This document shows positions 5,474 through 45,934 of a stretch of DNA of 64,000 nucleotides, one piece after another. Source of the DNA: Betaproteobacteria bacterium. GTDB lineage: Bacteria > Pseudomonadota > Gammaproteobacteria > Burkholderiales > Ga0077523. The position numbers and the translations under genes were made by a program. The first letter of the stretch is position 1. Every line of letters begins with the position of its first letter. Under the pieces are notes generated by a model. The model searched no databases. It saw nothing but the letters and a program-made list of their open reading frames with translations, and was not told the DNA's origin. The stretch is from positions 296,192-360,191 of the forward strand of contig JADJPK010000008.1 of NCBI GenBank assembly GCA_016713305.1, in the 5' to 3' direction.

Positions 5474-5476
5474 ACA

Positions 5477-11254: not shown

Positions 11255-11267
11255 TTATGCTTTGGAG

Positions 11268-21032: not shown

Positions 21033-21219
21033 GCGTACGTGCGGTCGCTTCTTGCGGCAGAAACGAGAACCCGGGCATGGTGGTCCTTCCCCTGCTCCGT
21101 GCCGCAGTGCAGGTCTGGCCGATCTGCCGCGATCGAGCCCATGCGGTCACGGGGAACGGCGCATCTCCCGCGCCCGTCATCGGGCCGGTCGCATTCGCCG
21201 ATGCCGGAGCCCGTCCTGA

Positions 21220-21267: not shown

Positions 21268-21414
21268 TGACGTTGCACCCTCCCGCACGAGGCAGCATTG
21301 CCGCACCGGTCCGCGGCCTTCAGGGATCTACGCCGGTCCGTCTCGGGCGCACGAAGACGCCGGGCCCCTGAGGTCACGACACAAGAAGCAGAACAACGCA
21401 GTCGAGGGGATCCC

Positions 21415-24400
21415 ATGAAGCGTCCACGCCCGCAGTCCGTCCATTTTTCGTCCGCCGCCCGTCCTCCTTTCGCCCGCAAGGCCCTGTTCGAACGGCTCGA
21501 GCCGCGCATCCTGCTGTCCGCGGACGCCCCCGGACTCGTGGATTCGGCAGGATTGCTCGCGATCCAGCTGGGGGATGCCGGCCACGAAGTCGTGGTCACG
21601 CGGACCGGCGATGCGCAGAACGGCGGCGCCCTCCTGCGCGTCGACATCGACGGATCGTTCTGGGACTTCGGCGACGCCGCCGATGGCGTGACGTCGCTGC
21701 GCATCGACGGTGGCGCCGGCGACGACCGGATCGACGCTTCCGGCGCGGCTGTCACCACGACCGTGGATGGTGGCGCGGGCCAGGATTCCCTGGTCGGACC
21801 GCGGCAGGACGTGCGCTGGTCCCTCACGGGGGACGGTGCGGGTGCGGTGGGAGGCGTGACCTTCAGCCGCATCGAGAACCTGCTGGGCGCTGCGGACAAC
21901 CGGGATACGTTCGTGCTCTTCGCCGGCGGCGGGTTGAGCGGCACGGCGGATGGCGGATCCGGCGGATTCGACTCCCTCGAGATCGATGCGGGTCCCATCT
22001 CGCTGGCGCGGTTCCTCGCCGACGGTCCGGATTCGGGGGTGGTGGAACTCGACGGCGACACCTTCCGTTATGCCGGCCTGGAACCGATCACGCTCACCAG
22101 CACCGCAGGTGAGATCGTCGTCGATGCCACGAGCGACGACAACACGCTCGTGCTCGAGGCCGACCCCACCAACAGCGCGAACCTGCGCGTGCGCAGCACC
22201 GACGGCACCATCGAGAGCGTGTCGTTCGCCCGCGCGTCGACGTCGATCACCATCAATCTGCTGGGCGGCGACGATTCGCTGGATATCGGCGATCTGGGCG
22301 CGGGCATCACGGCATCGCTCACGGTGGATGGCGGCGACGGCGACACCGATCTGATCACGGTGTCGGGGGACGTCGTACTTCCGGGGAAGGACGTGTCCCT
22401 GTCCGCGGAGACGGTCACCGTCGCCTACACGGGCAGCCTCTCCGTGCGCACGACGGCGGCGGGTGCAGACCAGGAAACGGCGGCGTCCACCGGCGGCTCG
22501 GGCAACATCGCGTTGCTGGGTCAGAACGTCGTCGTTGCCGCGGATGCCAGGCTGCTCTCGCAGGACACCCGGGCGGGACAGGCCTCCGCCGCGATCTCGC
22601 TCGGAACGGTCGCGGGCGACTGGACGGCAAACAAGCTCGGCACGCAAACCGTTTCGGGCACGTGGACCCGTGGACTCACCCACCGCCTCGTCGGCGCGAC
22701 GTCCACTTCCGGATCGGGCGACGGCATGGTCGTGGACATCTCGGTGGATGCCTCCGGGAACGTGTCGGCCACGCTGGTGGACATCGGCGAGGACTACGTG
22801 GTGGGTGACACGGTCACCTTCGACGAGCCGGATCGGAATCCCGACGGAGGCGACGACCTCTCCACGAACGGGTCGGTCACCTTCACGCTGGTCGCCTCGC
22901 ACAAGGGTGTGCGTCCGGCGGAAACCTCGGGCGACGGCGAAGGCATGACCGTCGACATCGATGTCGACGCGAGCGGCACGCTGACCGTCTCGATGGACAG
23001 CCCGGGCGCCCGCTATGCGGTGAACGACACCGTCACCTTCAACGATCCGCTGGAGACGTTCGACCCCTTCGGCCAGGACAACACGGCGGAGGTGACCGTC
23101 ACGGCCTGGGCGGGCAACATCCTCGTGGAAGGACGGCATCAGTTCACCTCCGCCTCTGCCTTCCAGTTCTACGACGCGATCGACACCGAGCCGCTCGTCA
23201 CGGTGGATGGGGCAACGCTCCGCGGCGAGAACATCACGATCCGCGCGGTGGCCAACTCCATCAACGAGCCGGGCGAGGACGAGGTCGTCGGCCAGACCGT
23301 GGACGATCTCGGCCTGGGCGGGCTGGACGACCTGAACGCATTCTTCGGCATGGTGAAGGCCACCTCCACGGCGCAGGCGGGCGTCGCGGCCGCGGTCGTC
23401 ACGAGCGGACTGACGCAGGCCGGCACCTGGACAGGCGATCTTTCGCACGCGCGCGTCGCCGCGACGTCCACTTCGGGCAGCGGCACCGGCATGCTCGCCG
23501 ACATCGAGGTCGACGGTGACGGGCTCGTCACGATCACCGTGGTCAATCCTGGAACGGGCTATCAGGCCGGAGACACGGTCACCTTCTCGGAACCCGGCGA
23601 AGACGCCGACGGCGAGGCGCTCAGCACCAACGGAACCATCTCGGTCCGGATCGACCTCTGGCAGCCGACGATCATTCGCGCGGAAGGCGACGTGAACGTC
23701 GAGGCGTGGGCCGGCGCCAAGGCGGACCTCCTCACGGGCGGTGTGCTGTTCGGTCTGGGCCTCACGTTTGCAACCGTCGATGCCACGGCGTACGTGGCGG
23801 GAGGCGCGGACATCACGTCCGGCGGCGCGCTGCGCGTGCAGTCGCTGGCCGAAAACATCTCCGACATGGCCGTCAACGTGACGTCCGCCCGCAGCATCCC
23901 GACGCTGAGCGGCGGCTATGCCGCCGCACGCAGCATCGTGGACGCCCATGTCGACTCGGGCGCGCTGCTGTCGGTGCACTCGCTCGACGTGCTCGCCGAT
24001 ACGCAGAACGACGTGAACGCGACCGTCGTGCCGTTGGAACTGGTCGATGCGCAGTCGAGCGGCATGGCCGTGACGATCGCGGTGATCGACTCCGACACCA
24101 CGGCGTTCGTCGACGCCGCGGTCACCGTGCCGGGCGACGTGTCGGTGGTCGCCTCCACGGAAGTCGAGAACGAGAACACCGCCGCAGCCGAGCCGAGCAG
24201 CGCCACCGGCGGCATCCTCGGCGCCGGGTTCGGCGCGATCAAGAACAAGATCAGTTCGAAATCCGCGCCCGCGCAGAGCGGCGCGGAGAAGTTCGAATTC
24301 TCGGCGGGCATCGCCGTCACCTTGTCGGACAACGACTCCACCGCGTACATCGGGTCGAATGCGGACGTGAAGGCGGGAGGTGACGTGACCGTCGACGCTT

Positions 24401-25953
24401 CCGTGTACGACGACCTCCGGATCTCCGCCACGAGCACGGCGGAGGATGCGCAGACCGGCATCAGCGTGTCGGTCGCTGTCGCCGAGACCGACGACCACGC
24501 TACCGCGTATATCGCCGATGACGCGCGCGTGAATTCCCGCGGCGCGCTGACGGTCCACTCGAGCACGGTGATCCCCAATCCGCTGCCGGACAACGCCTGG
24601 GGCGTCTTCGCGCCCGACGCGGACACCGGTGCAGGCGCCATCTTCAGCGTCCTCAAGTCGACCATCAACTTTGAATCGCTGATGTTCTCGCTGTTCACGT
24701 CGTATGTCCGCTCCGGGGCCGTATTCACGGAATCCGGCACGGCGACGTCCGGCGGCAGCGGCACCACGGCGCCCGAGAGCAAGCTGTCTCTGGCGGGCAG
24801 CTTCAACTGGCTCGAATACGACAATGCCAGCCATGCGTACATCGGCGCCGGGGCCCAGATCAATCAGGACGCCGCATACCGGGCCGACGGGCAGACCGTC
24901 AGCGTGACGGCAGATTCGAAGATCAAGACGCTGAACGTCGTCGGCATCTTCTCCTTCCCCAACCCCGCCAACGCCATCGGTTCCGACGGCAAGACCTCAC
25001 AGGCGTTGATCGATTCGATCAACCCGCTCGGCAACTCCGGCAAGGCCGCGCTCGGCGGATCGCTCACCTATCTCAACTACGGCACCAGCACGATCGCGGA
25101 GATCAAGGAAGGCGCCGTGGTGTATGCGCGGCAGGGCACGACCGTCCGCTCGAAGTCCGATCACTGGACGTTCATGCTGAGCGTGGCCGGCGGCAAGGCC
25201 GAGAAGACCGGCGTGGAAGGCGCCTTCGGCATGGTGGACCAGACGAGCGTCACGCGCGCTCAGGTGCACGATGGTGCGACCGTCACCGGCGGCGGACTCG
25301 CGATCCTGTCCACCGACGACACCAGCCACCTCAACGTGACCGGCGGGGCGGTCTGGAGCAAGAACGTCGGCGTGGGATTCTCCATCGGCGTCGAGGACGT
25401 GGACCGCACGGTCGAGGCCGTGCTGGGCGAGAGCGATGCGACGGCGACGGCGCTGGCGACCACGGTGGACGTGACGGGCGATGTGCAGATCGAAGCCGAG
25501 GCGACGGGCCAGGTGGAGAGCTATTCGGTGGCGGCCTCGCTCAAGACGGCGACCGACGCCAACACGAACCAGGGATCTCCCACCGGGTCGACCAACCAGA
25601 GTCTCGGGCCGTCAGGCTCGGGCGGACAGCAGCCGGTCAACGTTTCCGGCGGGAGCGGAAGCGGCGGGAGCGGTGGCTCCGGTGGGACGGGCGGCACGGG
25701 GAGCACCGGTGGGACGGGCGGCACGGGGAGCACCGGTGGAACAGGCGGTACGGGGAGCACCGGCAGCAGTACTCAGAGCCAGACGGGGTACGCCATTGCC
25801 GGCGACGTGTCGGTCAACATCATCGACGACACCGCGCGTGCCGTAGTCAACGCACCCGGAACGGTGAAGACCGGCAGCGCGCGCGACCTCGACGTCGTCG
25901 CCGCGAACACGACGGACTTCGTGGCGCTGGCCGGCGCCGCCACGTTCTCCTCG
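21415..25953 (+). CDS. Giant gene segment A (LEPR-XLL N-terminus, Ca-binding-like GxGxD repeats, beta-solenoid repeats)
   Basis: Part of tracked ORF 21298..26013. Sensible sequence ends at ...DFVALAGAATFSS, and the last 20 codons before the stop at 26013 are out-of-frame noise. Confidence 0.8.
21496..21516 (+). other. LEPR-x-LL signature (LEPRILL) in the N-terminal region of the giant protein
   Basis: Codons 28-34 encode L-E-P-R-I-L-L within ARKALFERLEPRILLSAD. Confidence 0.7.
25681..25761 (+). repeat. 27-bp in-frame tandem repeat x3 (GGTGGTGST)
   Basis: ggtgggacgggcggcacggggagcacc occurs at 25681-25707 and identically at 25708-25734. A third copy with 3 mismatches lies at 25735-25761. Confidence 0.9.
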
Positions 25954-28900
25954 GATCGTCGACCGTGCAGTCGAAGTCCGTCGGCATCGCCGGTTCGCTG
26001 GGCGTCAATGTGATCACCGGCACGACCGAGGCCTCCATCACGGACGCGACCGTTTCGCAGGTCGGCGATGTGAGCGTGGACGCGGCGCGGACCGGCACGT
26101 ACCTCACCGTCACGGCAGGAGGTTCCGGCTCCGCCCGCTCGACGGGCGTGAACGTGGCCGGTTCGGTGTCGTGGAACGAGTTGGAGGACACCACCGACGC
26201 CTTCATCGACAGTGCATCCATTACGGCAAGCGGGGCGCTGCGCGTCCAGTCGACCAACAGCACGACCGTCACCGCCATCGCCGGCGCGGCGGCCTTCACG
26301 CTCCCTCTCGGGTCCCAGTCTCCCGGGTCCAGCGGCGCCATCGGACTGTCCGTGGGCGTGAACCGGGTGACATCCACGGTCAATGCCTACTCGAAGGGAT
26401 CCACGCTCACTGCGGGCGGCGATGTCAGCATCGATGCCCTGTCGACCATCGACATCGAAGGCTATTCCTACGGTGGCGCGCTGTCGGTCTCCACGGGACG
26501 CAGCAGTTCCGGCTCGGGGCTCGTCTGGGACGGCGCGGGCGCTGGTGCGGGCAACGAAGTGACGAACACCGTCGCGGCCTACGTCGAAGGCGGCAGCGTG
26601 ACCACGACCACCGGCAGTGGCGGTGACGTCTCGGTTTCCGCGACCGACCGCTCGGTGGTCGATTCCGACGCCGGCGGGTTCGCCCTCTCGCTTTCCTCGG
26701 CAAGCCAGGGCTCCAGCCAGACGCTGTCGGTGGGCATTTCGGTGGGCGTGAACATCGTCACCAACACGACGGAGGCCACCATCGACGGGTCGACGGTGAA
26801 TGCCGACGGCGCAGTTTCGGTCGATATGAAGTCCCTCGCTTCCATCGAGGCGCTGACCATCGCCGGAACCCTGGTGGGCGTGCAGACCAGCGGCACCGGT
26901 TTCGGCGGATCGGGGGCGGGCGCCGGATCGGGCAACACGGTGAAGAACACCGGGCGGTCCCGGGTGCGCAACGGCGCGTCCGTCACCGCGGGCGGCGGTG
27001 TCAGCGTGTCGGCCACCGATGCGATCTCGGAAGACGACAAGAGCCTGATCAAGGCCGACGCAGGCGGGGTGGCCATCGCGTTGACCCTGCAGAGCCAGGG
27101 CTCCACCAACGTCAACGTGACCTTCGGCATCTCGGTCGCGGTGAACGACGTCGAGAACACGGTCGAATCCCTGGTGGACGACAGCACGATCGTGGCAGGC
27201 GCCGCCGTGAGTCTGGAGGCGCAGTCGGACATCGAGATCGATGCGCTGACCATCGCCGGTTCGCTGAGCGGCAGCTATTCGTCGCAGCAGGGTGGCCTGC
27301 CGATCAACATCTCTGGTGCCGGCGCAGGGTCGGGCAACACCATCACCAACACCGTCTCGGCGACGATCGAGAACGGTTCACAGGTGACCACGAACAACGG
27401 CGGCGGCGTCACGCTGCTCGCGCACGACGATTCCGAGATCACGGCCGATGCCGGTGCCATCGCCCTGGCGTTGAGCTATTCGCAGGGCAGCGCGGTCAAC
27501 GTCTCCGTTGGGGCGACAGCCGCGGTGAACGAGATCACCAACACGGTCGAGGCCGGCGTGGACGCATCGACGGTCGATGCGGACGGCGCGTTCCAGGCCA
27601 CGGCCGAGACCACGGCCACGATCGACGCCCTCACGCTGGCCGGCGCGGGAACCGGCACGTTGTCGGGCGGCCAGTCCGGCGTGGGTGTTGCCATCGCCGG
27701 CGCAGGGACGGGGTCCGGCAACGACCTCGCCAACTCCACGCTCGCGTACATCCGCAACGGCAGTTCCGTATCCACGGACAACGCCGGTTCCGTCAGTCTC
27801 ACGGCGACGAACGCGTCCACCATCACGGCCGACGCCGTGGCGGGCAGCCTGTCCGTGCAGTACGGTGGATCGGCCGGTGCCTCCGTCTCCATTGGTGCCG
27901 CCATCAGCGTGAACGACATCGGCGACACCACACGCGCATACGTCGAGGATTCCGACGTCGCTTCCGACGGTGCGGTGACCCTCGACGCCCGCTCCACGGC
28001 CATCATCGATTCGCTGTCCGTCGGTGCCGCGGTCAGCGTGTCCGCCAGCGGCCAGAGCGGCGCGGTGGCCATTGCAGGCGCTGCGGCGGGCGCGAGTTCC
28101 TACAACACCATCGACAACACGACCGAGGCGTACCTGAGCGGCGCGAGCACGGACATGGTGACGACCGGAACGGGCGCGCTCCTGGGCATCACGGTGGTGG
28201 ACGAGAACCGCATCACCGCCGACGCCGGGGCAGGCAGCCTCGCCGTGTCGTTCTCCCTGGAGGGCGGCTCGTTCGCCGCGGCCATCGGCATCGGTCTCGC
28301 CTACAACGACATCACCAACACCGTGCGGGGCTATATCTCCGGCACCACGATCGATGCCGGGTCGGTGGACATCGACGTTGCCACGGAACCCGAGGACAGC
28401 AGCGAACCGATGATCGATGCGCTGGCCGTGGGCGTGGCGGTGGCGGCGGCGATCACCAATCCCCAGCAAGGCTTCAGCGTCGCGCTTTCCGGCGCCGGCG
28501 CCGAGTCGGACAACACGATCGACAACACGGTCACGGCCTTCATCGACGGGTTCGCCGACATCACCACCACCGGTGGAGTTCGGGTGGCGGCGTCCGAGAC
28601 CGCCACCATGTCGGCGGATGTGCCCGCCATCGCTGCGTCTCTTGGCGTGCTGTCCGCCGCCATCGGCGTGTCGATGAGCGAGAACACCATCGAGTCCGAC
28701 GTCGATGCGTACATCGACGATGCGACGATCGATGCCGGCGCGGGCGTCGACGTCGTGACGAAGTCCGACGACAGCATCGAGGCAACGACGACTCCCATCG
28801 CCATCTCCATCGGCATCGGCATCGCAGGCGCGGGTGCGGAGGCGCTGTCGACGATAGCCGGTTCGGTCGAAGCCTGGCTCGGCGACAACGCGGACATCAC

Positions 28901-30394
28901 ATCGGCAGGCAGCGTGCGCGTCTCGTCCGTCTCCACGGCGGACGCCACGGCCGAAGGCGAAGGCGGAGGGGCGGGCGCGCTGTCCTTCGACGCACTGGTG
29001 GCCGAAGCCACGGTGTCGCAGGACACCCGTGCCTACGTCCAGGGCGGTGCCCGGATCGACGCGACCGGCCTCTCGGTGGTCACGTACGGCCTCGACGCGA
29101 GCGACCCGACGGAGAGCTCGCGCACGGCGACGTCGGACGTCGTCGTCGGCAACGTCACCGTCGTGGGCGCCAACGGCGCGGACACGAGTTCCACCATCTC
29201 GGGTGACGTCGAGGCCTACATCGACGGTGACGCCGAGATCACGCTTTCCGGTGGCGCGCTCGTCGAGGCCCGCTCTTCCGCCAATGCCGACTCGGTGGGC
29301 GAGGGCGGATCCGGGGGCGGCATTGCCGTCTCCGTGATGTATGTGGCGGCCGAGATCAGCGGCGGCACGAAGGCCTGGGTGGGGGACGGCACGACGCTCG
29401 ATTCGTCGTCGTTGTCGGTGCTCGCGACTTCGGACAACACCGCCACGGCCGACGAGCTGAGCGTGGCGATCGCTTTCGGTGGCGGCGCAGGGGGCGACGC
29501 CGCCGCGACGATCACGCACAACACCGAAGCGTGGATCGGCGCGCAGACGGATATTCCTGTCCAGGCGGAGACGACGATCACGTCGGGGGCGATCGACGTC
29601 TCGGCAACGTCTTCGCACACGATCGACGTCACCCCGGAAGGCGGAGCGGGAGGCGGCGTGGCGATCGGCGCCTTCACTGCCGAGGGTTACCTCGGAGACG
29701 ACCTGGGCAACGGTTCGACCCGCGCCTATGTCGGCCAGGGCGCGCGCATCGAGGCTTCTTCCCTCGACGTCACCGCTTCATCGACCACCGACGTCACGGT
29801 GGACGTGCTGGTCGTGGGCATCGGTGTCCTGTCCGGAGCGGGCGCGGACGTCGAACTGCTGGTGCAGGGCGAAGTGGAGGCCTTCCTGGACCCGGGTGCG
29901 ACCCCCGACCTCAGCGCCGCCATCGACGTGAGCGGAGCGGTCAACGTGACTGCCACGTCGGACGACACGGCGTATGCCAACACCGAGGGCGGGGCCGGCG
30001 GCGCCGTGTCGGTGAGCGTCATGTACGCTGCAGCGACGAACGAGGTGGAGACTCGAGCCTACGTCGGTGACGACGCCGGGCTGTCCGTGGGCAGCCTGTC
30101 GATGACGGCGACGGCAGCGGACCGGGATACCGAGGCGGAGATGGTGGTCGGCTCGGGAGGCGTGCTGGCCGGAGCGGGCGGAACGACCGACGCGCTTTCG
30201 AGCGGGACGATCGAGGCCTATGTCGGGTCGGATGCCGTCATCGAGGCGAGCGGGGCCGTGAGCGTCCTGGCCCAGTCGCAGGACACGACGGCGCAGAGCA
30301 ATTCGGAAGGCGGGTCCGGTGGCGGCATTGCCATCTCCATCTTCGAGTCGACGGCCATCGTCGACACGGCGACGGAGGCCCGCGTCGACGAGGG
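25954..30394 (+). CDS. Giant gene segment B (about 95-100-aa degenerate beta-solenoid-type repeats)
   Basis: Tracked ORF 25965..30584. A periodic pattern recurs throughout: ...AGAGSGN-x-I-x-NTV-x-A-x-I...ADAG..A...VGA.AAVN.I.NT.EA.VD.S.V.A.G... Confidence 0.8.
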
Positions 30395-34165: not shown

Positions 34166-35665
34166 CGGCGTACCGGTCGCGAATGCGTTCACGAATCTGC
34201 GGCTGGACGCGGACCGTCTGGTGGTCGACAACAGCGGCAACGCGGTACAGGCGGTGACCTGGACCGTCGAAGACGGGGTGCAGATCGACGCCGATGTGGG
34301 CGCGGGCCGCGTTCCTGTGATCTTCGCCGAAGGCGCCAAGGAAATCCGCGTGCTGGGCGGCACGCAGTCGGACACGTTGAACGTGGTGAGCACGCTGCCC
34401 GCGGACATCGAGGGCCGGGTGACCGACCACCGGGTCGAATTGTCCGCGGGTGCCGTGGTGCTGGAGTACGCCGACAACGCGCAGTTCCGCGACTACGACA
34501 GGGCGCTGAGCTTCGATGCGCTCGCCACGGGCAGCGCGAGCTACTCCGAGGATGGGTTCACCCTCGCGCCGCTGCCTTCCGGTTCGCTCGCACGCAGCGA
34601 TGCGGTGAGCGCGGCCGCCCGGTTCACGGCGGGCCAGTCCGGCCGTCTGACGGTCGCGGGAGCGCTCTTCTCGCTCTCGTCGATGCGCCTGGGGTCGACC
34701 GCGGCAGCGGGCACGTCGGTGAGGTTCACCGGAACGACCTTCAATGGCGCCACCGTTCAGGTCGACGTTCCGGTCGTCGGTGCCGAGGCCGCGTCGGGCC
34801 TGCCGGTGTTCCGGCGCGCCGATTTCACCAATCCGCTGTTCGGTGCACTGGCGAAGCTGGAGTGGACAGTGACCGGGAGCGGAGACCTGCTGATCGACGA
34901 CGTCGTGGCCACACCCTTCGACGGATCGGCGTCCGCGGTCGTCACACCCGGCGCCGTGCCGGCAACGACGTCCATGGCCGGTCCGATCGCGCTGCTGTTC
35001 GACACGGACAACCTGCGGATCGTCGTCGACGCCAACCGCAATGGCGCCTTCAATGCAGGCGAGACCACCTATGCCTCCGGTTCGTCCTTCTTCGGCGTTC
35101 CGCTGACGATCTCCACCGTGGGCACGGACGGCACGGTCCGCGCCGACGGCACGTCCCAGGCGGCCGATCGCATCACCCAGTTCCGGCTCGCCGGCGACCT
35201 GGTGCTGCCGTCGGGCACGACCGCCACAGCGACGACCGTCAAAGGCATCGGCAGCCGCGGCGTCAGCCTCGTCGTCGGCAACGATCTGGTGATCGGCGCG
35301 AACGTCGATTTCGACTTCTCCGCCGTGGCTACCACCGCCGGCCCGGGGGGCGGCACCGCGGGCGGAGGCGCCACTGTTTCCGGTTCGCAGAGCAGCGCGG
35401 GCGGCGGCGGAGCGGGAGGGGGCGGCGGCAGCACGTCGGGCACGCTCTCGAACGGCGGAAGCGGCGGCGCCGGGACTGACTCGTACACGCTGCGCGATGG
35501 CGTGGCGGGCGAGGACGGGGGTGACGGTACGAGCGGTTCCCCGGGTGTCGCCGGGGGGGCGGGCGGGGCGGGAACAGGCGGCGGACTCGGTGTCAACAAC
35601 GCCTCGGGTGCAGGCAGTGGCGGGTCAGGTGGAGCCGGCGGCGGCAGCGTCACGGGGGTACGAGG
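34166..35665 (+). CDS. Giant gene segment D (beta-sandwich-like region, start of the Gly-rich tract)
   Basis: Tracked ORF 34221..36107. The frame is open upstream to 34166 (FPGVPVANAFTNLRLDADRLVVDNSG...). It is meaningful to about ...GGAGGGSVTG. The end coordinate is approximate. Confidence 0.75.
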
Positions 35666-38600
35666 GGCCTGGGGGGAGACGGTGGCAGCAAGGGCGACGA
35701 TTCCTCGGCCGGCCCTGGCGATTTCAGGAGCGGCGACGACGGCGGCAATGGCGACGACGGGGATCCGGGCAGCAACGGCACGGCCGGCACCTACGGCACT
35801 GCCGGAACGGCCGGATACTCGGGCGCGAACACCGGGTCGGGCACCACGATCTCCGGCGGTTCGGGCGGTGGTGGTGGCGGTTCGGGCGGCGGCGGTTCGG
35901 GCGGTGGCGGTGGGGGCGGCGCAGGAGCCGGCGGCGGGGGAGGCGGAGGAGGCAACGCCGTGTTCTCTGTCTTGGGCTACCCGGTGGGTCTTGAAGGCGG
36001 CGATGGCGGAAACGGCGGAGCCGGAGGCCGCGGCGGTGACGGGGGCGACGGCGGGGTCGGTGGCGCAGGGGGCGCAGGTGGCGCGGGAGGCGGCGCGTTC
36101 GAGGTGATTGCCTTGGGCCGCATCCGTACGACCGCCGCCACCAGTGCCGAGCAGCCATCGTTCGAGGCCAGGGGCGGCAACGGCACGATCGGCGGCGCCG
36201 CGGGAGCGACCGATCCGACGACCGACCGCAACGACAATCGCAATTCCGGCCAGGGCAGCGGCGGCGGAGGCGACAATGGCGAAGACGGCGGGCTCATCGA
36301 CGGCGGGGACGGCGGGGACGGCGGGGACGGCGGTTCGGGTGGCGAAGGCGGCTTCGGTGGTGCTGGTGCGCCCGGCGGTCTGGGGGCTGGTGGCGCAGGG
36401 GGCACGATCAAGATCGTGGGTTCGGTCGTGGAACTGGGCAGCGCGACGGTGAACGTCGACGGCGGACTCGCGGGTGGAAATCCCGATGTCCGCATCGCCG
36501 GAAGCGGCCTCACCACGAAGATCTTCAACTTCGGGTCGACGCTCTCGACGTTCCCCAGCTACGGCGGAACGCCCAATGCCACCCGTACCGACCGCGTCAT
36601 CAGCCAGGGCTGGGGGCCGCTCAACTTCCAGGGCGGCACGGCCAACGCCGACAACTTCGCGGTGCAGTGGACCGGCAACATCGAGGTGCGCCCCGAATCC
36701 GGCGGGACGACCCAGAAGGTCACGTTCTACCTGTCGAGCGACGACGGAGGCCGCCTGTACATCGACGACCAGCTCGTGATCAACGATCCCAGTCCTCTGC
36801 ACGGCTATGCCACGCGGACAGGCGATCGTGAACTCACGGCGGGCACGCACTCCATCCGTGTCGAGTACTTCGGCTCCACCGGCAATGCCGGCATCGCGCT
36901 CGAATACAGCACGGGCACTGACTCGCGCCGTCTGCTGTCCGTCGCGCAGGACGGCGGCGACGGGCGGGAGATCATCGGCGGCAACACCGGTCGCACCTCC
37001 ACGACGGTCGGCGGCCAGCCCGGCACGGTGGTGGGCGCGCAGCTGCCCGTCACTCAGACCGACGGGCCGCGCGCGGACAACCGCTACGTGGCGGACCTCG
37101 CATCGAACACGGCGCTCGACGACACCCCCTACATCGCGGGCATGTCCGGCGGTGCGGAACTGTTCGGCCTGTTGAACGGCGTCGGGCGCGCGCGGGTCGA
37201 TTTCGTCCCCACGACGGCCGGCATCGACGCGCTGGCCGCCACGCAGGGCGACGCCGCCTTCGCGATCGTGCGTCTGGATGTGGGCCCCACGGGCTATGCC
37301 GACAACTACGCCACCTTCGACACGGCGGCGGGCGTGACCCGCGGCTACGACATGCTGCTGTTCGTCAACCTTCTGGACACGGAATCCCTCGGCACCCCCA
37401 CCCTGGGGGTGTCGCTCCCCGGCACTTCGACGTTCACGACCGGCCTGGCGATCGACGGCCTGGGCGCCTTCCAGACGCTGAGCGCGCTCGGCGCGGGGAA
37501 GGTCTGGGCCACGCTGATTCCCGATACCACGGGCATCACCGTCAACGCATCGGCCCAGATGGGCGAGGCGGCCGTCACGTTGTCGAATGCAGCGCTAGCC
37601 AAGAATTCCGTCGTGTACGGAAAGTTCGTCTCGCCGGCCGCGGCCAACGCGTCGCTGGATGGATTCGCCGCACTGGCCACCAGCCCCGATGGCGCGCAGA
37701 TCTACGCGGTCGATGCCACGGACGATGCGCCGGTCGTCATCGACGCGGCCACGCTGGAGCAGCGGCAGCTTCTGAAGGAAGGGTTCGACGGCGTTCGCGG
37801 GCTCGACGGGGCGCGCGACGTTGCGGTGAGCCCGGACGGCGGGAACGTCTACGTCGCCAGCCCGGTGGACAGCCAGATCGCGGTCTTCTCGCGCAGCGCG
37901 TCCACGGGCGCGCTCACGTTCGTGACGACGCTGGATGCCACGCAGAGCGGGGGCGGTGTCACGGCCCTCACGTTCGATCCCACCGGACAGCGTCTCTACG
38001 CGGCGGGGCCGGAGGGGATCACCGTCTTCTCGCGCGGGGTCGGCGTGCCGGCCAGCGCCCAGGAGTCGGAGCCCAACCAGAATGGCGCGGGCGACAGCAA
38101 TGCCGCGAACAGCGCGGACTTCGCACGGGCCAACGACCTGATGGGCAGCTTCGTGGCCAACCCCGGGAGCAACGTCTTCGTTGCCAACGTGGGCGGCACG
38201 ATCTCCACGGCAACGGACCGGGACGTCTACCGGTTCGAGGCGGCATCCGGCGATGCGCTCACGGTCGATCTGCGGGGCGCCGGCGGCGGCGGGGGCAGTC
38301 TTCAGGACGGCGTGCTTCGTCTGTTCGACCGCAACGGCACTCTCCTCGTCCTGGACAACGACAGCGGTCCGGCCAGCGATGCCTCGCTCTCCTACTCGAA
38401 CTTCGCCTACTCGGGCAGCTATTACCTCGTTGCGGACGGGATCGCACCGAGCCCGTTCTTCCAGCCGACCGGCACGTACACCCTCCGCGCCAGCCTGGTG
38501 CGGACAGACGGGGCGCGGTCGAGAACGGCCGAGATCGAGACCGTTCCAGCGGCCTCGGGCGACGTCGAAACCCTGTCGGCCGTCGACCGGGCCCTTGCGA

Positions 38601-41600
38601 CCGACTGGCGCTACAGTTTCGCCCCTGTCGGCGCCGGCAACACGGCGACCGCCTCTGCGACTGGCGTCGTGGTGGCGGCGACCGACCGTGACGTCTTCAT
38701 GATCACGGCGGCGCCCGGCGACTCGCTTACCCTCGCGCTGAGCGGCACGGGGGGCGGCGGCGGGGTTCTGGCCGACGGATATCTGCGGTTGTTCGACGAC
38801 CAGGGCACGTTCCTGGCGGCCGACGACGATTCGGGTCCGGGCAACGATTCCGCCCTCGTCTTCAGCGGCTTCACGCGGGCCGGCGCGGTCTACATCGTGG
38901 CCGACGGGTTCCAGGCGAACAGCGGCACCTACACGCTCACCGCGACGCACACGCGTGCGCCCGCCGAACTGCCCGGACTCACGGTGCCCGGAGGTGCCTC
39001 GGCACTCGCCACGAGCCCTGATGGTTCACTGCTCTACGTGGCCACGGAAGGCACCGACACCCTGCGCGTCGTCAGCGCGTCTTCTCTGGTCACGCTGCAG
39101 ACGTTCACGGGAGCCGGCGTCGGGCTCGACGGCGTCAGCGCCATCGCGACGAGCGCGGACGACCGCTTCGTCTACGTGACCGGCCGGGCAGGCAATTCGG
39201 TGTCGGTGTTCTCGCGCCTGGGATCCACACTCACCTGGTTGCAGACGCTCGTGAACGGCGAGGACGGCGTGCGCGGCACCGTCGGCGCATCCGACGTGAT
39301 GATCACCCCCGACGCCCGCTACGTTCTCGTGACGGGCCGTGAAAGCAACGCGATCGCCGTGTTCGAGCGCGATGCGTCCATCGGACTGATGAGCTTCGTG
39401 CAGGTCGTCCGCAACGGTGTCGGCGGCACGGCCGGTCTCGTCGCCCCGACGGGTCTGGCCACCAGCCCGACCGGCGCGAAGATCTACACGTCCACGCTCG
39501 GAGCCACCGGCTTGCCAGGAGGAATCGCCTCCTTCGACGACGTCGTGCTGGGGCTGCCGGTGCCGGAACCGGTGATCAACGTGACGACGTTCGACGGGAT
39601 CGAGACCCTCGGCGTGCAGACGGCCGACGGCGACGACACGATCGTGCTCGAGCAGGCGCCTGGCGCCGGGACGATGAACATCCTGACGACCGGCGGGAAC
39701 GATCTCGTGGTCGTGCAGGATCTCGCGCCGGTCACCGGCGTGCTGCTGGGCGCGGGAACCGACGAGGCGCAACTGCGCTCCACACGCGCAAGTACGCAAC
39801 TTGTCGTCCAGGGTGAAGCAGGTTCGGATCTCATCGAACTGGATCGCAGCGGCGCGGGTGCCCGCATCGAGGTCTTCGGGGGAGCGGATCGGGACACGGT
39901 CCGGGTCGCTGGGGCCGGCCTGCCGCTGGATGCCACCACGATCCTTCACGGTACCGACACGGATCCGCTGCCTTACGATCAGCTCGTCTTCGATCCGGGC
40001 AGTGCCGATCCGGCGGCGAACAACTTCGATCCGCTGAATCCGAGTCCGGTGGCGGGCACGATCCGGTCCGGCATCCGGTCAGGCACCACGTTCACCCCGA
40101 CCGGCGGGCTGGTGCAGTACGACACCTTCGAAGGCGTCCAGATCATCACCGCGCCCGTGATCACGATCACTCCGCCGGCGGCGTTCGCGGAAGGCGGTTC
40201 CCTGCGGCTGCAGGCTTCCGTCAATCCGCTCGGGACGACCAATTCGCTGGCCGAACCGTTGTCGTGGGATGTGAACGGCGACGGCGCCTTCGGCGATGCA
40301 TACGGCACCGACGTGACGCTTTCGTGGTCCCAGCTCGCGGACCTCGGCATCGACGACAACGGCGTCTATCAGATCGCCGCACGCGCCACCAATGGTGATG
40401 GCTACTCCGCGGAAGCCTTCGGCAGCTTCACGATGACCAACACGCTGCCGGTCGTGACAGTGGGTGGTGCGAGCATCGTGCCGGCCGGCACGCCGCTCTC
40501 CATTTCGTACAGTGCGACCGATCCGGGCGACGACCGCATCCAGGAGTGGCGCGTCAACTGGGGGGACGGGACGCCGGTGCAGAGCTACGGTGCGGATGTC
40601 GTGACCGCGCAACACGTGTATGTCACGCCGGGCACCTACAACATCGTGGTCGGGGGCGTCGACGAAGACACGGTTCCGAACGCGGTGAACTCCGCACCCA
40701 AGCCGGTGACCGTCACGGGCGAACCGGCCCTGATCTCCACGGGCTTGCCCTACGTCATTCGTGAAGGCGAGACGCTCGTGCTCACTGCCAGCGCGCCGGG
40801 GGCCGTCAATGCGTTCGGATGGGACTTGAACGGCGATGGCGCGGCCGACTTGCAGGCAGGCGGCGGGTCCGGCAGCGCCACTGTCGCCGTGCCATGGTCG
40901 ACGCTGTCCGGCTACAACATCCGCGACAACGGGGTCTTCCCGGTCACCACCCTGGTGCTCTACAGCAGCGGCGCCGTCGTCGTTGCGCCTGCCACGACGT
41001 TGACGGTGCTCAACTCCGCGCCGACAGCCACCTTCGCTGCAGGTGGCCCCATCTCGGAAGGCGGAACAGCCAGTGTCCAGTTCTCGGGCGCCGCCGATCC
41101 CTCGTCGGCAGACGTGGCAGCGGGCTTCCGCTACAGCGTCGACTTCAACAATGACGGCGACTACGATGACGCCACCGATGTGCGCGATCAGACGGAGGCA
41201 TCGTTCGTCATTCACGCTGCGCTTCGCGCCGACAACGTCACGTATATCTTCCGTGGGCGGATCGCGGACAAGGACGGCGGAGCGACCGAATACCTGACGT
41301 CGTTCGTCGTGAACGAAGTGGGGCCCGTGCTGAACATCTCGGGTGCGGATTCCGTGAACGAGGGCGCGCAGTACCAGCTCGATCTTTCTGCCAGCGATCC
41401 GGGCACCGACACGATCGTCCGGTGGATCGTCGACTGGACCGACGGGGTGGTCGAGACGTTCGACGGTCCGGTACAGTCGGTGTCGCACGCGTTCGCGGAC
41501 GACGGTCTGCGCAACATTCTCGTGACCGCCGTGGACGAGGACGGTGAGTATCACGGCGCGAAGTCGGTGCTCGTCCACAACGTGGCACCGCAGCTTCAGG

Positions 41601-43426
41601 CCGTGATGCAGAGCCGGGTGGACGAAGGCGATGTTGCACGGTTGTCCGGCACCATCGCCGATCCGGGCCGGCTCGACAGCTTCACGCTGACCGTGGATTG
41701 GGGCGAGGGAGCCCCGGAAGTGATCGCGTTGAGCGCGGGGGCCACGGTGTTCGAAGTGGTGCATCGCTATCAGGACGACCGGCCCGGCGGGACTGCATTC
41801 GACGCCTATCCGATCGCCATCTCCCTGCTCGATGACGATGGCGGCTCCGCCGCGACCACGGCGGCCGTGGTCGTCGACAACGTGGCCCCCGCGATCACTG
41901 GTCTGGCGACGTCCGCCGGCTCGGTCGCGGAAGGCGATTCGGTGACGATCTCCGGCCGCATCGACGACCCGGGCGTCCTGGACGAGCACACGGTACAGAT
42001 CGACTGGGGCGACGGGTCGGTCGTGTCCGCGTCGGTGGATGCCGTGACTCGTACCTTCGCGGCCGAGCACCGCTATGTCGACGACGATCCCACGGCGACA
42101 CCGTCGGACCTCTATGCGATCACGGCCACGATCGCCGACGACGATCTCGGCAGCGGCACAGCATCCACTCAGGTGACCGTCGAGAACCGTGCTCCCGGTC
42201 TCACCGGGTTGCAGGTGGACGAGATCCGTACGGCCCTGACATCGTCGGCGACGCTCAGCGGGCGCCTTTCCGATGTGGGCATCTCGGATACGCACGTGGT
42301 GACCGTGGAGTGGGGCGATGGAACCTCCAGCCAGGCCACCGTGGACGCCATCGCGCGCACCTTCACCGCCCAGCACGAATACCGCATCGACGTGGTGCCG
42401 GGGTACCGCATCCTCGTCAGCGCCACCGACGACGACACCGGAGGTACATCGAGCTACATCGACACCATCGGATACCAGGCCAACCGGGCGCCGATCGCGC
42501 GCGACGACGCCGCCTCCGTCGTGAGGGGTTCGTTCATCGACATCGACCTCCTCACGAACGACAGCGATCCCGACGCAGATCCGTTGTCGACCCTGTTGAC
42601 GACCGTGTCCACCCACGGGGTGCTTCGCCATCTTGGCTCGGGCGTGTATCGATACACGTCCGCGTCGGGATTCACGGGAACGGACTCCTTCACCTACCGC
42701 GTGAGCGACGGCAAGGCAGGTTCCAACGTCGCGACCGTGACCGTCTCCGTTCTGGACACGAATGTTGCCCCCGTGGCGGTCGGTGACGTCGTGACGACTG
42801 CGGAAGACACGCCCCTGACGTTCGATCCAAGGGCGAACGATACGGACACGGATCTGGATCCGCTGACCATCGCCGGGATGACGCCCGCGTCGCACGGCAT
42901 CGTGAGCCTGAATGCCGACGGCTCCGTGACCTACACGCCCGATCAGGACTTCAACGGCACGGACTCGTTCACGTACATCGTGAGTGATGGCCGCGACACC
43001 TCGGACGTGGCCACGGTCACTGTCATCGTGACGCCGCAACCTGACGTTCCCACGGTGCCGAACCAGCAGATCACGGTGCCGGAAGACCATTTCACCAGGA
43101 TCGATCTGGTGACCGGAGCGACGGATCCGGACGGCGATCCGCTCACTCCGATAATTGGCACGCCACCGGTCAACGGGACGCTGACGCAGAATCCGGACGG
43201 GACGTTCACGTACACACCGAAGCCGAACTTCAACGGCACCGACACCTTCACCTTCACGGTGACGGACGGAACGAACACTTCGACGCCGGCGACGGTGACG
43301 ATCCTCGTGACGCCGCAGCCGGATCTGCCGACCGTGCCGAACCAGCAGATCACGGTGCCGGAAGACCATTTCACCAGGATCGATCTGGTGACCGGAGCGA
43401 CGGATCCGGACGGCGATCCGCTCACG
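35666..43426 (+). CDS. Giant gene segment E (Gly-rich tract, PA14, split propeller with 2 PPC-like inserts, PKD-like modules, cadherin-like repeats)
   Basis: Tracked ORF 35960..43981. The frame is open upstream to about 35660 (GLGGDGGSKGDDSSAGPGDF...). It is meaningful to ...GATDPDGDPLT at 43426. The start coordinate is approximate. Confidence 0.8.
36515..36910 (+). other. PA14-like domain of the giant protein
   Basis: TKIFNFGSTL...RVISQGWGPLNFQGG...DNFAVQWTGNIEV...VTFYLSSDDGGRLYIDDQLVIND...GTHSIRVEYFGSTGNAGIALEYS matches the PA14 pattern (F.v...G.i......Y.F...sDDg..l.idg..vid). Confidence 0.75.
38192..38944 (+). other. Two pre-peptidase-C-terminal (PPC)-like modules inserted in a 7-bladed propeller
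   Basis: The modules are GGTISTATDRDVYRFEAASGDALTVDLRG...GVLRLFDRNGTLLVLDND...YYLVADG...GTYTLRASL (38192-38497) and a second copy ...ATDRDVFMITAAPGDSLTLALSG...GYLRLFDDQGTFLAADDD...VYIVADG...GTYTLTATH (38654-38944). They are flanked by SPDG-x-x-(V/L)YV...(I/V)-x-VF-type blades at about 37652-38029 (3 blades) and about 38972-39535 (4 blades). Confidence 0.6.
40150..42481 (+). other. Array of about eight PKD/Ig-like modules
   Basis: W/V-D-x-(G/N)-DG signatures recur about every 270-290 nt: WDVNGDGAFGD, VNWGDGTPVQSY...HVYVTPGTYNIVV, WDLNGDGAAD, VDFNNDGDYDD, VDWTDGVVETF, VDWGEGAPEV, IDWGDGSVVS, VEWGDGTSSQ. Confidence 0.65.
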
Positions 43427-43900
43427 CGGGCACCCGATGATTGGCACGCCACCGGTCAACGGGACGCTGACGCAGAATCCGGACGGGACGTTCACGTACA
43501 CACCGAAGCCGGACTTCAACGGCACCGACACCTTCACCTTCGTGGTGACGGACGGAACGAACACTTCGACGCCGGCGACGGTGACGATCCTTGTGACGCC
43601 GCAGCCGGATCTGCCGACCGTGCCGAACCAGCAGATCACGGTGCCGGAAGACCATTTCACCAGGATCGATCTGGTGACCGGAGCGACGGATCCGGACGGC
43701 GATCCGCTCACGCCGGTGATCGGCACGCCGCCGGTCAACGGCACGCTGACGCAGAACCCGGACGGGACGTTCACGTACACGCCGAAGCCGGACTTCAACG
43801 GCACCGACACCTTCACCTTCACGGTGACGGATGGGACGAACACCTCGACGCCCGCGACGGTGACCATCGTCGTGACACCCCAGCCAGATCGCCCCATCGT
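42482..43900 (+). repeat. Cadherin-like 93-95-aa repeats, including three near-identical 279-bp tandem units
   Basis: The units follow the pattern NxAPxAxDD...D(L/P)LxND(S/T)D.D.DPL......P.HG......DG..TYTP...F.GTDSFTY.VSDG......ATVTV. Units at 43034-43312, 43313-43598 (carrying 7 extra nt) and 43599-43877 are nearly identical at the DNA level. Confidence 0.85.
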
Positions 43901-45827
43901 CACGACGGAAACGGCCTCGTTGCGTGCAGTGGCGGACGAGGGCGAACTGGTCATCATGCAGTTCGACATGTTCGATCCTGACGGCGAGCTGCTCCAGTTG
44001 AGCCTTTCCGGCGCGCCGTCCGGCGCGACGGTGCTGGCGTTGAGCGCGACACGCGGCGAAGTCCGCTGGACGGCTTCGGACGGAGAGGCGACCTACCCGT
44101 TCGAGATCGTGGTGAGCGACGGCACTTCGGAAGTGAGGACGGAAGCGGCGGTGCTGGTGCACAACGTGGCGCCGGTGCTGACGGCCACCGGCGCGGCGAC
44201 GGCGCTGTCGAATCAGCCGTACGTGCTGAGTCTGGGATCGTTCGACCCCGGTGAGGACACCCTGCAGACCTGGGTGGTCGACTGGGGCGACGGCAGTGCG
44301 CTGGAGACGGTGGCGGGCAATACCCCGAGCTTGACTCACGTGTTCCGCGAGCCTGGCAAGACCCACCGCATCCAGGCCGGTGCGATCGACGAGGATGGCG
44401 CGTGGAGTGCGGCGCCGCTGGACGTGCAGGTGATCAACCCGAGGCTGTACGTCACCCAGTGGAACGCCACCGAAAGCGGGGTGAACGTGCGCTTCAGCCG
44501 CAGCGTCGACGCCAGCGTGCTGAACCTGTACGAAAGCGCGCTGGACCCGCAAGGCGGAACGGATCTGGTCCTGGTCGGACCGGACGGAAAGCCGGTGCGG
44601 GGCAACCTCATTCTGGATGCCGACCGGCAAGGCTTCAGCTTTGTCGCCACCGGCGGGGGGCTGGCGGCGGGCCGCTACGAATTGACCCTGTCGGCGCGGA
44701 CCAATGCCTTCGTCGACAGCGACGGGATCGGCCTGGACGGCAACAAGGACACCATCGGTGGCGACGACTTCCGGGCCAGTTTCACGATCGCCCCCATCGC
44801 CAAGCCCACCCTGAGCATCGCCGACTTCGTCATCGGGCCCAAACAGGTCGCCGACGTACCCGCGACCAGTCGCGGCATCCCGCTGACGCTGACCAGCGAA
44901 GTGGCGGTGAGCGAGCTCAGCTTCGGTCTCAAGCTCGACCCGGCGCTGCTGGAGATCATCGGCATCGAAGGCGGAGCGGACTTGCCTGCGGGAAGCCAGA
45001 TCCGCATCACCGGAGCGGGCGGCAGCTATGGCATCACCGTCACACTGTCCGGACCGCTGGCAGCCGGAACGCATGAAGTGCTGCGGCTGCTGGGTTCCGT
45101 ACCTGCCACGGCGCCCTATCGTGCCGCCCAGGTGCTGGACCTGCACAGCGTCCGCGTCAATGGACAGAGTGCCAGGGCCGACGACGGCGTGCACATCGCC
45201 GCCTATCTGGGCGACACCACGGGAGATGCCCGCTATACCAGCCTGGACGGCCAGCGGATCAACCGCTACGTCGGCGGACTGGACGGAGGCTTCGGTGCAT
45301 ACAAGACGCTCGATCCGGTGCTCGTCGGCGACGTGGACCGGAACGGTGTGCTCGATGCCGCCGATACCCTCATCGTCAGCCGTGAATCGCAGTACCTGCT
45401 GAGCGGCAACGTCAATCTCGATCAGAAGCAGATCGCCCCGATTCCGGCGACGCAGCAGAGCGCGACGCTGGGAACGGACAGCGTGGGGGTGAGCGCTCCG
45501 GTGGCTGCCACGGCGAGCCGGACTGCCATCAAGACGGTGGTGCCAGCGGCCCCGGCGAGCCCGGCCACGAACTGGCTCGATCAGGCGATGCGGACATTGA
45601 ATGCCATGAGGGCGCCGAGCCTGCCAGTGGAGGATGTGGAGATGAGATTCCTGAGCGGCGAGCGGACGTGGGAGAACCTCAACGTTCCGGTGCCGGACAC
45701 GAGCTGGAAGGTGACGCTGCCCAGGCTCACGAGCGGGGTGGTGCTGAGCGAGGCGGCGCTGCCTGCCGGATTGACGCAGGACACACTGGCCGCACTGAAG
45801 TACCTGGCGAAGCGGAAGGGGCGGTAA
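43434..45827 (+). CDS. Giant gene segment F (last cadherin-like repeats, PKD-like module, cohesin-like and dockerin-like C-terminus)
   Basis: Tracked ORF 43437..45827. It resumes the interrupted repeat exactly at P-M-IGTPPVNGTLTQNPDGTFTYTPKP. The stop TAA is at 45825-45827. Confidence 0.85.
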   Translation, partial: PMIGTPPVNGTLTQNPDGTFTYTPKPDFNGTDTFTFVVTDGTNTSTPATVTILVTPQPDLPTVPNQQITVPEDHFTRIDLVTGATDPDGDPLTPVIGTPPVNGTLTQNPDGTFTYTPKPDFNGTDTFTFTVTDGTNTSTPATVTIVVTPQPDRPIVTTETASLRAVADEGELVIMQFDMFDPDGELLQLSLSGAPSGATVLALSATRGEVRWTASDGEATYPFEIVVSDGTSEVRTEAAVLVHNVAPVLTATGAATALSNQPYVLSLGSFDPGEDTLQTWVVDWGDGSALETVAGNTPSLTHVFREPGKTHRIQAGAIDEDGAWSAAPLDVQVINPRLYVTQWNATESGVNVRFSRSVDASVLNLYESALDPQGGTDLVLVGPDGKPVRGNLILDADRQGFSFVATGGGLAAGRYELTLSARTNAFVDSDGIGLDGNKDTIGGDDFRASFTIAPIAKPTLSIADFVIGPKQVADVPATSRGIPLTLTSEVAVSELSFGLKLDPALLEIIGIEGGADLPAGSQIRITGAGGSYGITVTLSGPLAAGTHEVLRLLGSVPATAPYRAAQVLDLHSVRVNGQSARADDGVHIAAYLGDTTGDARYTSLDGQRINRYVGGLDGGFGAYKTLDPVLVGDVDRNGVLDAADTLIVSRESQYLLSGNVNLDQKQIAPIPATQQSATLGTDSVGVSAPVAATASRTAIKTVVPAAPASPATNWLDQAMRTLNAMRAPSLPVEDVEMRFLSGERTWENLNVPVPDTSWKVTLPRLTSGVVLSEAALPAGLTQDTLAALKYLAKRKGR
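44808..45165 (+). other. Cohesin-like module near the C-terminus of the giant protein
   Basis: TLSIADFVIGPKQVADVPATSRGIPLTLTSEVAVSELSFGLKLDPALLEIIGIEGG...GITVTLSG...HEVLRLLGSVPATAP...LDLHSVRVNG shows the cohesin-type pattern (ipv.l.s...v.....f.l.yDp.lL.i). Confidence 0.5.
45210..45389 (+). other. Dockerin-like duplicated EF-hand module
   Basis: GDTTGDARYTSLDGQRINRYV ... GDVDRNGVLDAADTLIVSRE forms two D-x-(D/T)-x-(D/N)-G-x-(hydrophobic)-x3-D loops, each followed by a helix. The spacing is typical of type-I dockerins. Confidence 0.55.
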
Positions 45828-45843: not shown

Positions 45844-45934
45844 CGGTCCCTGGGCCCTAGACCCTAGACCCCAGACCCTGGACCCTAGACCCTGGACCCT
45901 AGACCCTGGACCCTGGTCCCTGGTCCCTGGTCCC
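45844..45934. repeat. Heptanucleotide microsatellite (CCCTRGW) x13
   Basis: cggtccc tgggccc tagaccc tagaccc cagaccc tggaccc tagaccc tggaccc tagaccc tggaccc tggtccc tggtccc tggtccc. It begins 17 nt after the giant-gene stop. The complementary strand carries 13 GGG tracts with 4-nt loops. Confidence 0.9.

Follow-up and report, generated by a model that had tools for sequence, protein, structure and literature searches.

Positions 21415-45827 of the window, as we call the whole 64,000-nucleotide stretch of contig JADJPK010000008.1 (Betaproteobacteria bacterium) analysed here, raise a simple question: do they hold one giant gene or six smaller ones? A first-pass annotation had described a single 24.4-kb gene for a mosaic surface protein of the LEPR-XLL family, about 8,135 residues long and in need of frame repair. 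As sequenced, the interval is not a single open reading frame (ORF). It is made up of six ORFs on the plus strand, in frames 1, 0, 2, 0, 2 and 0 and of 628-2,673 amino acids (aa) each, the first of which appears in the source annotation by itself as a 1,532-aa protein (P0006). We hold with considerable confidence that the interval is one gene. The best explanation of the locus as a whole is quite probably a gene of a Burkholderiales-type diderm for a secreted or surface fibre of the LEPR-XLL family, 8,137 residues and about 808 kDa in size, whose six-ORF appearance is an assembly artefact and which works as proposed below.

Both ends of this gene can be placed. An AGGGG-type Shine-Dalgarno sequence precedes its ATG at 21415, and two relatives (L003 and L007) conserve the MKR... 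start of the protein. The stop codon is TAA 45825-45827, and the 3´ end is confirmed by a 3.3-kb strain contig of 99.1% identity (L002), obtained in a metagenome scan with the C-terminus. Between the two ends, a frame plot of GC content at third codon positions (GC3) tracks all frame switches, and the coding signal is unbroken from piece to piece. Once repaired at five points, the frame encodes 8,137 aa and is free of internal stops and of cysteines. The repaired protein has a mass of 808 kDa, an isoelectric point (pI) of 4.05 and no transmembrane segment; its last 100 aa are basic (pI 9.7). The earlier length estimate is therefore sound. As for the coding signal said to run continuously from ATG to TAA, both ends and the GC3 continuity stand, but the single ORF does not.

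The five breaks, J1 to J5, were placed by translating all three frames around each switch (Table 1). J1-J4 are ±1 insertions or deletions (indels), and three of these four lie at or beside short G/C runs. Comparison with relatives reveals what the undamaged gene looks like. The orthologue in a Burkholderiales metagenome-assembled genome (MAG STL-PRO80, locus L003) is found by tblastn as one high-scoring segment pair in one frame, covering aa 14-4821 (the end of the fetched locus) with 77% identity and passing through J1-J4. In the DNA alignment to this orthologue 1-nt gaps stand at J1-J3, and the cumulative gap balance modulo 3 steps through 0, 1, 2, 1, 2, matching the frame switches. A 557-kb JGI contig (L001) carries another orthologue, 68% identical, which runs colinear with the repaired protein over aa 11-6165. 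This relative has breaks of its own at other places (about aa 204, 230, 1488, 2783, 2931, 2955, 3407, 4586 and 5250), and across the positions of J1-J4 it stays in one frame with conserved residues. Together with a LEPR-XLL match above the curated cutoff of NF012209, the single frame of L003 bears out the view of one giant mosaic gene that needs frame repair.

Could the six ORFs nevertheless be separate adjacent genes, or be joined by programmed frameshifting? As the sequence stands, every piece is an ORF of respectable length, and piece 1 has already been annotated alone. Yet conserved residues continue straight through each junction, the repeat units of the protein are cut in mid-unit at the breaks, and no start codon or ribosome-binding site was found at the junctions, except ATG 43437 at J5. 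Programmed frameshifting would call for signals that are not there: no slippery motif is common to the junctions, and relatives do without the shifts. Both ideas, which we consider next to impossible, are ruled out by the L003 orthologue, a single frame over four junctions.

A decaying pseudogene, in which all five breaks are real and no full-length protein is made, deserves more attention. Large repetitive genes impose a high cost and frequently disappear, and the breaks are unevenly spread, which speaks against a purely technical origin: five occur in the 24.4 kb of the giant gene and two were detected in about 40 kb of flank, a density of 1 per 4.9 kb versus roughly 1 per 20 kb (p 0.04-0.15). 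This enrichment is statistically weak. That 5 of 7 detected frameshifts fall in the giant gene has a binomial p of 0.08 when judged by length and 0.04 by share of homopolymers; leaving J5 aside, the values are 0.15 and 0.09. Moreover, the ordinary neighbours bear the same type of indel, as the split genes for hydantoinase A and for a sensor histidine kinase demonstrate (Table 1), and relatives from similar data break at other places. The 8,137 repaired codons contain neither stop nor Cys, and the GC3 signal is undiminished. A pseudogene is thus very improbable. Because flanking genes are broken likewise, orthologues read through and the repaired protein is intact, we attribute J1-J4 to indels of the assembly, in a single gene that is itself intact; the evidence, all of it drawn from assembled sequence, points to assembly errors and not to real mutations.

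J5 has to be judged by itself. It is a lesion of a different type, a contiguous insertion of 7 nt within a 279-nt tandem DNA repeat whose sister copies are 95-99% identical, and the affected copy is missing from the orthologues L007 and L008, so no orthologue spans it; both facts count against extending the explanation of J1-J4 to this site. The strain contig L002 begins downstream of J5, and its two 7-nt differences have nothing to do with J5 but reflect the copy number of a heptamer microsatellite. Either J5 combines a real 6-nt insertion with a 1-nt error, or it is a genuine frameshift that cuts off the last ~800 aa. Under the latter reading the protein would end about 180 out-of-frame residues past aa 7340, at the stop 43979-43981, and its cohesin/dockerin end would either be missing or be translated on its own, from ATG 43437. 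This start codon lies exactly at the junction and opens a 796-aa ORF (43437-45827), the insertion does not resemble a homopolymer slip, and the copy number of the repeat that carries it varies among orthologues. On the other hand, the 2.4 kb downstream keep a strong frame-0 coding signal and no Cys, and consensus errors are to be expected within tandem repeats of such identity. Dropping one base of the CCC or GGG run at J5 leaves a plausible 2-aa loop insertion (DPLT-RA-PMIG). We consider a true truncation unlikely and continue with the full-length protein.

Frame damage of this kind is seen beyond the window. On the L008 contig, the genes for AcrB, QueA, Tgt and SecD are split by frameshifts as well, and many database fragments of such giants (e.g. 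P0001, P0002 and P0003) end in Arg-rich out-of-frame tails. In public databases, the breaking-up of LEPR-XLL giant genes seems to be systematic. This locus exemplifies how indels in metagenome assemblies of the long-read style shred giant repetitive genes, and it shows that a gene broken in this way can be restored by comparison with an intact orthologue.

Table 1. Positions of the giant gene, its frame breaks, its modules and the neighbouring genes discussed (window coordinates in nt; residues of the repaired protein)
Feature	Position	Strand	Residues	Evidence and remarks
Whole giant gene	21415..45827	+		8,137 codons plus stop once frames are repaired
Six ORFs as read	21298-26013, 25965-30584, 30395-35479, 34221-36107, 35960-43981, 43437-45827	+		
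Segments joined in the repair	21415-25953, 25953-30395, 30395-34165, 34167-35675, 35675-43432, 43434-45827			
J1	25951..25955	+		Frame 1 to 0; window 1 nt short (TTCTC-CTCGG) relative to intact orthologue L003
J2	30392..30396	+		Frame 0 to 2; window 1 nt short at or beside GGGG run
J3	34163..34166	+		Frame 2 to 0; one surplus C (CCCC, CCC in orthologue)
J4	35654..35677	+		Frame 0 to 2; 1 nt short in one of three G runs of Gly-rich tract; site ambiguous within ~7 codons
J5	43426..43433	+		Frame 2 to 0; repeat copy B carries 7 contiguous extra nt (CGGGCAC) that its sister copies A and C lack
LEPR-XLL motif LFERLEPRILLSADAPGL	21484..21537	+	24-41	NF012209 25.3 bits (cutoff 17), profile positions 2-19 of 24
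GGxGxD-type motif region	21682..22404	+	~90-330	Scattered motifs; no family match; lies within the 400-aa N-terminal module
LktA_tand_53 beta-repeat region	23770..30317	+	786-2968	NF012206 414.5 bits, 18 stretches (piece 2); 50.2 bits, 5 stretches (piece 1); cutoff 50
Further beta-rich sequence		+	to ~3800	No family match
GSGxD(T/S)hxh repeat block	32810..34433	+	~3800-4340 (repeats 3827-4240)	Related to N-terminal GGxGxD region
Gly-rich tract	35334..36412	+	4641-5000	45% Gly
PA14 domain	36503..36895	+	~5031-5161	PF07691 46.9 bits (cutoff 24)
7-bladed lactonase-type beta-propeller	37640..39592	+	~5410-6060	PF10282 77 bits; blades by motif and hidden Markov model (HMM)
Two paralogous PPC-like inserts	38180..38953	+	5590-5696, 5746-5847	Between blades 3 and 4; PF04151 24.3 bits, under cutoff 25.9; self-built HMM finds exactly two
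PKD/Ig-like array	40148..42439	+	6246-7009	PF18911 80 bits; 6 clear PKD-like modules and ~2 divergent
Cadherin-like/tandem-95 repeats	42497..44174	+	7029-7587	5 x 93 aa and 1 divergent; NF012211 182 and 134 bits (cutoff 90)
Three near-identical 279-nt DNA repeats	43026-43890	+		Within cadherin-like repeats
Seventh clear PKD-like module	44166-44399	+	7585-7662	
Ig-like sandwich, then cohesin fold		+	~7680-7930	AlphaFold2 (AF2) model, predicted local distance difference test (pLDDT) 75-93
Cohesin-fold module	44871..45203	+	~7820-7930	Top ~50 Foldseek matches nearly all cohesins; E 1.7e-7; template modelling (TM) score 0.73-0.77 on target
Dockerin-like module, two Ca-loop segments	45204..45386	+	~7931-7991	PF00404 16.7 bits (cutoff 22.9), 2 stretches
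Conserved C-terminal tail, ~130 aa	45387..45824	+		Basic; ends ...ALKYLAKRKGR
Small upstream gene, 212 aa	20283..20921	+		Sec signal peptide; cohesin-like domain 23.4 bits (cutoff 24.1); PEP-CTERM tail 15.9 bits (cutoff 20.7)
Hydantoinase A gene	18064-20132	-		±1 shift near 18460-18490, CCCC/GGG context; Hydant_A_N and Hydantoinase_A in one frame, Hydant_A_C in another
CHASE/PAS sensor histidine kinase gene	50570-54195	-		±1 shift near 53370-53380 at CCCC run; CHASE domain split at profile position 132

What kind of protein does the repaired gene encode? At its N-terminus a basic stretch precedes the LFERLEPRILLSAD motif, and neither a Sec or Tat signal nor a Sec-type hydrophobic core is present. 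The LEPR-XLL motif occupies the same N-terminal position in L001, L003, L007, P0009, P0012, P0040 and P0055, and its region also gives a weak Planc_extracel match. The first 400 aa form a module with 1,918 cluster representatives at E ≤1e-3 (923 at E ≤1e-10); many of these align to it from their own N-terminus, and their lengths reach 7,638 aa. Not one Pfam family was recognised in the first 14.5 kb of the gene; it was NCBIfam that gave the repeat its name. Sequence searches of the PDB with the N-terminal 780 aa, with the repeat region and with aa 3330-4251 found nothing.

The LktA_tand_53 repeat dominates this half of the protein. Tiling combined with iterative self-built HMMs resolved 31 clear units of ~50-68 aa belonging to two alternating sub-types, with a super-period of ~128 aa. 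Weaker copies of the same type reach about aa 3150-3330, so that the whole region measures ~2,200-2,500 aa. Three super-repeats were modelled with AF2 on an alignment of 15 cropped homologous segments. The model is all-beta and confidently predicted (pLDDT 93.7, predicted TM score 0.89); according to DSSP it consists of ~25-residue strand segments, two per unit. When the model was submitted to Foldseek against PDB and BFVD, nothing superposed on it (TM ≤0.13 in PDB, mostly <0.2 in BFVD, all probabilities ≤0.14). The weak PDB matches are exclusively beta-helix or solenoid proteins, and in a PDB profile search one repeat unit marginally matched the Afp tailocin fibre 8UUR (E 0.0017). A beta-solenoid-like structure is therefore plausible on the strength of the model. 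Against a rod stands the fact that its geometry is a prediction with no experimental counterpart in PDB or BFVD.

The first-pass annotation had listed for this half an LEPRILL signature, GxGxD-type Ca-binding-like repeats, some 3,500 residues of unnamed 95-100-aa units and GSGxDT(L/V) repeats. The signature and the last of these are found as described. GxGxD-type motifs do occur at the N-terminus but match no family; the long repeat is real but shorter in both unit and span than was thought, and it has a name, NF012206. A DNA repeat of 27 nt in 3.1 tandem copies (25679-25763), encoding a GTGGTGSTG-type Gly/Thr linker at aa ~1420-1450, lies just upstream of J1.

In the C-terminal half, the earlier description holds almost throughout: the Gly-rich tract, the PA14 domain, the seven-bladed propeller with two PPC-like inserts (the latter just below their cutoff), about eight PKD-like modules, counted here as seven clear and some two divergent ones, and cadherin-like repeats of 93-95 aa were all recovered. 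Blades of the propeller start at aa 5421, 5470 and 5519 and then, after the inserts, at aa 5865, 5911, 5962 and 6015. The cadherin-like repeats are also matched by Big_9 (198 bits) and by Cadherin_5. Only the claim of a cohesin-like and dockerin-like end needs to be qualified. The cohesin is recognisable by its fold; Pfam Cohesin is annotated on homologues and not significant on the giant protein itself. The dockerin 2CCL_B aligns over both Ca loops at E 0.19, and the homologues P0079 and P0080 carry Pfam Dockerin_1 (PF00404). In the giant protein, however, the dockerin stays below the PF00404 threshold and has low confidence in the AF2 model, which must be set against a cohesin-dockerin pair. 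Directly 3´ of the stop codon, at 45848-45934, lies the heptanucleotide microsatellite (GACCCTR/CCCTGGA, ~12.4 copies). In the strain contig L002 it is two units shorter, a copy-number polymorphism.

Three curated NCBIfam thresholds (LEPR-XLL, LktA_tand_53 and tandem-95) are passed, and standard pipelines would call the product "LEPR-XLL domain-containing protein". It is a further member of a catalogued family that is widespread and effectively unstudied: our literature search for LEPR-XLL and LktA returned incidental mentions only, two of them of this family, and no experimentally characterised member. Other giants of the family (NF012209 'LEPR-8K'), such as P0055 of Methylomicrobium and a Vibrio protein of ~8,000 aa with an RTX (repeats-in-toxin)/serralysin C-terminus (PMC10868602), have the same basic stretch and LExLEPRxLLSAD at the same position. 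All are huge and composed of extracellular domains in a repetitive mosaic, and the N-terminal 400-aa module is shared by hundreds of clusters. They differ in the C-terminal half. The Vibrio protein and P0040, an LEPR-type protein carrying Peptidase_M10 and HemolysinCabind, end in RTX/serralysin sequences, whereas the window protein ends in PKD, cadherin, cohesin and dockerin-like modules and a basic tail without an RTX block.

Two relatives show what can surround or carry such genes. In L007 (VYKP01001127.1), two giant genes stand in tandem: 308 nt separate the C-terminal end of the orthologue (3438-5900) from the N-terminus of another LEPR-XLL giant (6208-8316), which is 64% identical to the window protein over aa 17-688. 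A partial protein, P0004, is 56% identical and, judged by eye, colinear with roughly aa 2400-4800; it comes from an 8.1-kb contig of a MAG labelled Ilumatobacteraceae. Its presence in an actinobacterial MAG is due either to mis-binning or to horizontal spread of the family.

Large adhesins of mosaic build are nothing new, and among them the RTX-type giants that leave the cell by type I secretion (LapA, BapA/LapF, SiiE and MpIBP) invite comparison. Like these, the window protein is a Cys-free and very acidic giant with a long repetitive extender, a distal, presumably ligand-binding region with PA14 and Ig-like modules, and Ca-binding motifs. Unlike them, it has no C-terminal nonapeptide block and no adjacent genes for an ABC transporter, membrane fusion protein (MFP) and TolC, and its extender is a beta repeat of 53-65 aa instead of BIg domains. 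HemolysinCabind (PF00353) has no match in it at E ≤0.01, and the BapA/Bap/LapF C-terminal model NF045619 reaches 47.2 bits, far under its cutoff of 180. Beta-helical fibres and stalks (Ag43, EtpA/FHA, curli CsgA and the Afp tailocin fibre 8UUR) resemble the repeat region in being all-beta, repetitive and rich in Gly, Ala, Thr, Val and Asn. They do not superpose on it (TM ≤0.13), its strand segments of ~25 residues contrast with the short rungs of classical solenoids, and it lacks both the domain of two-partner secretion (TPS) substrates and an autotransporter barrel. As for known cohesin-dockerin modules (PDB 6KGC, 2XDH, 1OHZ and 2CCL), the predicted fold superposes on the cohesins, and after it comes a duplicated Ca-loop segment alignable to a type I dockerin; sequence identity to known cohesins is, however, only 10-17%, and the dockerin remains under the Pfam threshold. 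In contrast to cellulosomal systems, both modules stand in tandem on one polypeptide, a proteobacterial giant without carbohydrate-active enzymes.

How might such a protein leave the cell? We annotated all flanking genes in the window, the upstream flanks of the orthologues L003 and L001 and the downstream flank of L008. Among the flanking genes of the window, none encodes a type I secretion system (T1SS; ABC/MFP/TolC), TPS, autotransporter or exosortase component; such ABC genes as there are, at 58-63 kb, belong to amino-acid importers of the Liv type. The statement that secretion genes are not adjacent, which had left the route of export unnamed, thus applies to the window and equally to the annotated orthologue flanks. 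The giant gene, scanned with Pfam, likewise has no TPS domain or C-terminal beta-barrel, its flanks in the window hold no TpsB-like neighbour, and the giant protein has no PEP-CTERM match. Judging by its composition, the protein would leave the cell unfolded and without the help of Sec or Tat, through machinery encoded elsewhere. Acidic pI, absence of Cys and lack of an N-terminal Sec signal are traits of RTX/T1SS substrates, and a type I-like ABC/MFP/TolC system would be the most likely exporter, favoured because of zero Cys, the pI of 4.05 and the RTX/serralysin C-termini of some LEPR-type relatives. We put this route forward tentatively and would not be surprised to see it fail. It is opposed by the missing RTX block (four scattered nonapeptides are all there is, none near the C-terminus), by the basic C-terminal tail, unlike typical T1SS signals, and by the fact that no T1SS genes occur in the window or in the annotated flanks of L001, L003 and L008, although they may lie elsewhere in the genome.

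The protein as a whole is likely to be an extracellular fibre or adhesin. Its LEPR-XLL end would stay proximal to the cell, and the beta-repeat rod together with the Ig/cadherin arrays would make up a stalk of over 100 nm, stiffened by Ca. The 360-aa Gly-rich tract may serve as a linker ahead of a PA14/propeller/PPC head that would bind glycans or surfaces. The terminal cohesin-dockerin pair could mediate protein-protein docking, by self-association or with partners such as the cohesin protein with a PEP-CTERM tail encoded next door. Adhesion to surfaces or between cells, in the formation of flocs or biofilm, would be the net function; the first-pass view of the protein as the dominant adhesin or biofilm determinant of the locus is an inference.

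The neighbouring cohesin gene (20283-20921) invites the idea of a true partnership, with the giant's cohesin-dockerin end docking to its product. Several observations speak against it. A strong intrinsic terminator at ~21001-21034 separates the two genes, making the giant gene a separate transcription unit; the small gene is absent beside orthologues of the giant gene; its product has one homologue in a database of 5.8 billion proteins and shows no sequence relationship to the cohesin of the giant itself. Not conserved, cut off by a terminator and without similarity to the giant's cohesin, the proposed partner was rejected and is kept as speculation. The docking itself appears highly doubtful to us, and any link between the giant gene and this product is speculative.

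Other surface proteins are encoded nearby. A 727-aa PEP-CTERM protein (9020-11203, plus strand; 37.7 bits, cutoff 20.7) adjoins a gene for a glycosyltransferase of family GT4 (10887-12470, plus strand), and the two point to an exosortase/exopolysaccharide-type surface system in the host. The occurrence of PEP-CTERM proteins in the window also supports a Burkholderiales-type host. In L003, two small PEP-CTERM proteins (5135-5857, plus strand; 6092-7261, minus strand) are encoded 2-4 kb upstream of the orthologue. They were considered as homologues of the window's small cohesin protein and dismissed, the likeness being confined to signal peptide and sorting tag.

Current understanding is not overturned by this gene. 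What it adds to the widespread LEPR-XLL family is a fully mapped architecture of 8,137 aa, with three features of note: a putative export signal unlike those of Sec and of classical RTX/T1SS substrates, a confidently predicted beta-repeat fold without solved counterpart, and, in a surface protein of a proteobacterium, a C-terminal end with cohesin and dockerin-like modules in tandem. These could be read jointly. LEPR-XLL giants would then use an uncharacterised route of export and anchoring, with LFExLEPRxLLSAD and the basic tail acting in recognition or retention; LktA_tand_53 would form an all-beta rod of a kind not seen before; and cohesin-dockerin contacts would dock the fibres to cohesin proteins anchored through PEP-CTERM, either on the same cell or on its neighbours. 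Such a combination is, in our estimation, quite a long shot. If it were true, a connector in the style of the cellulosome would have been reused for floc formation in a proteobacterium.

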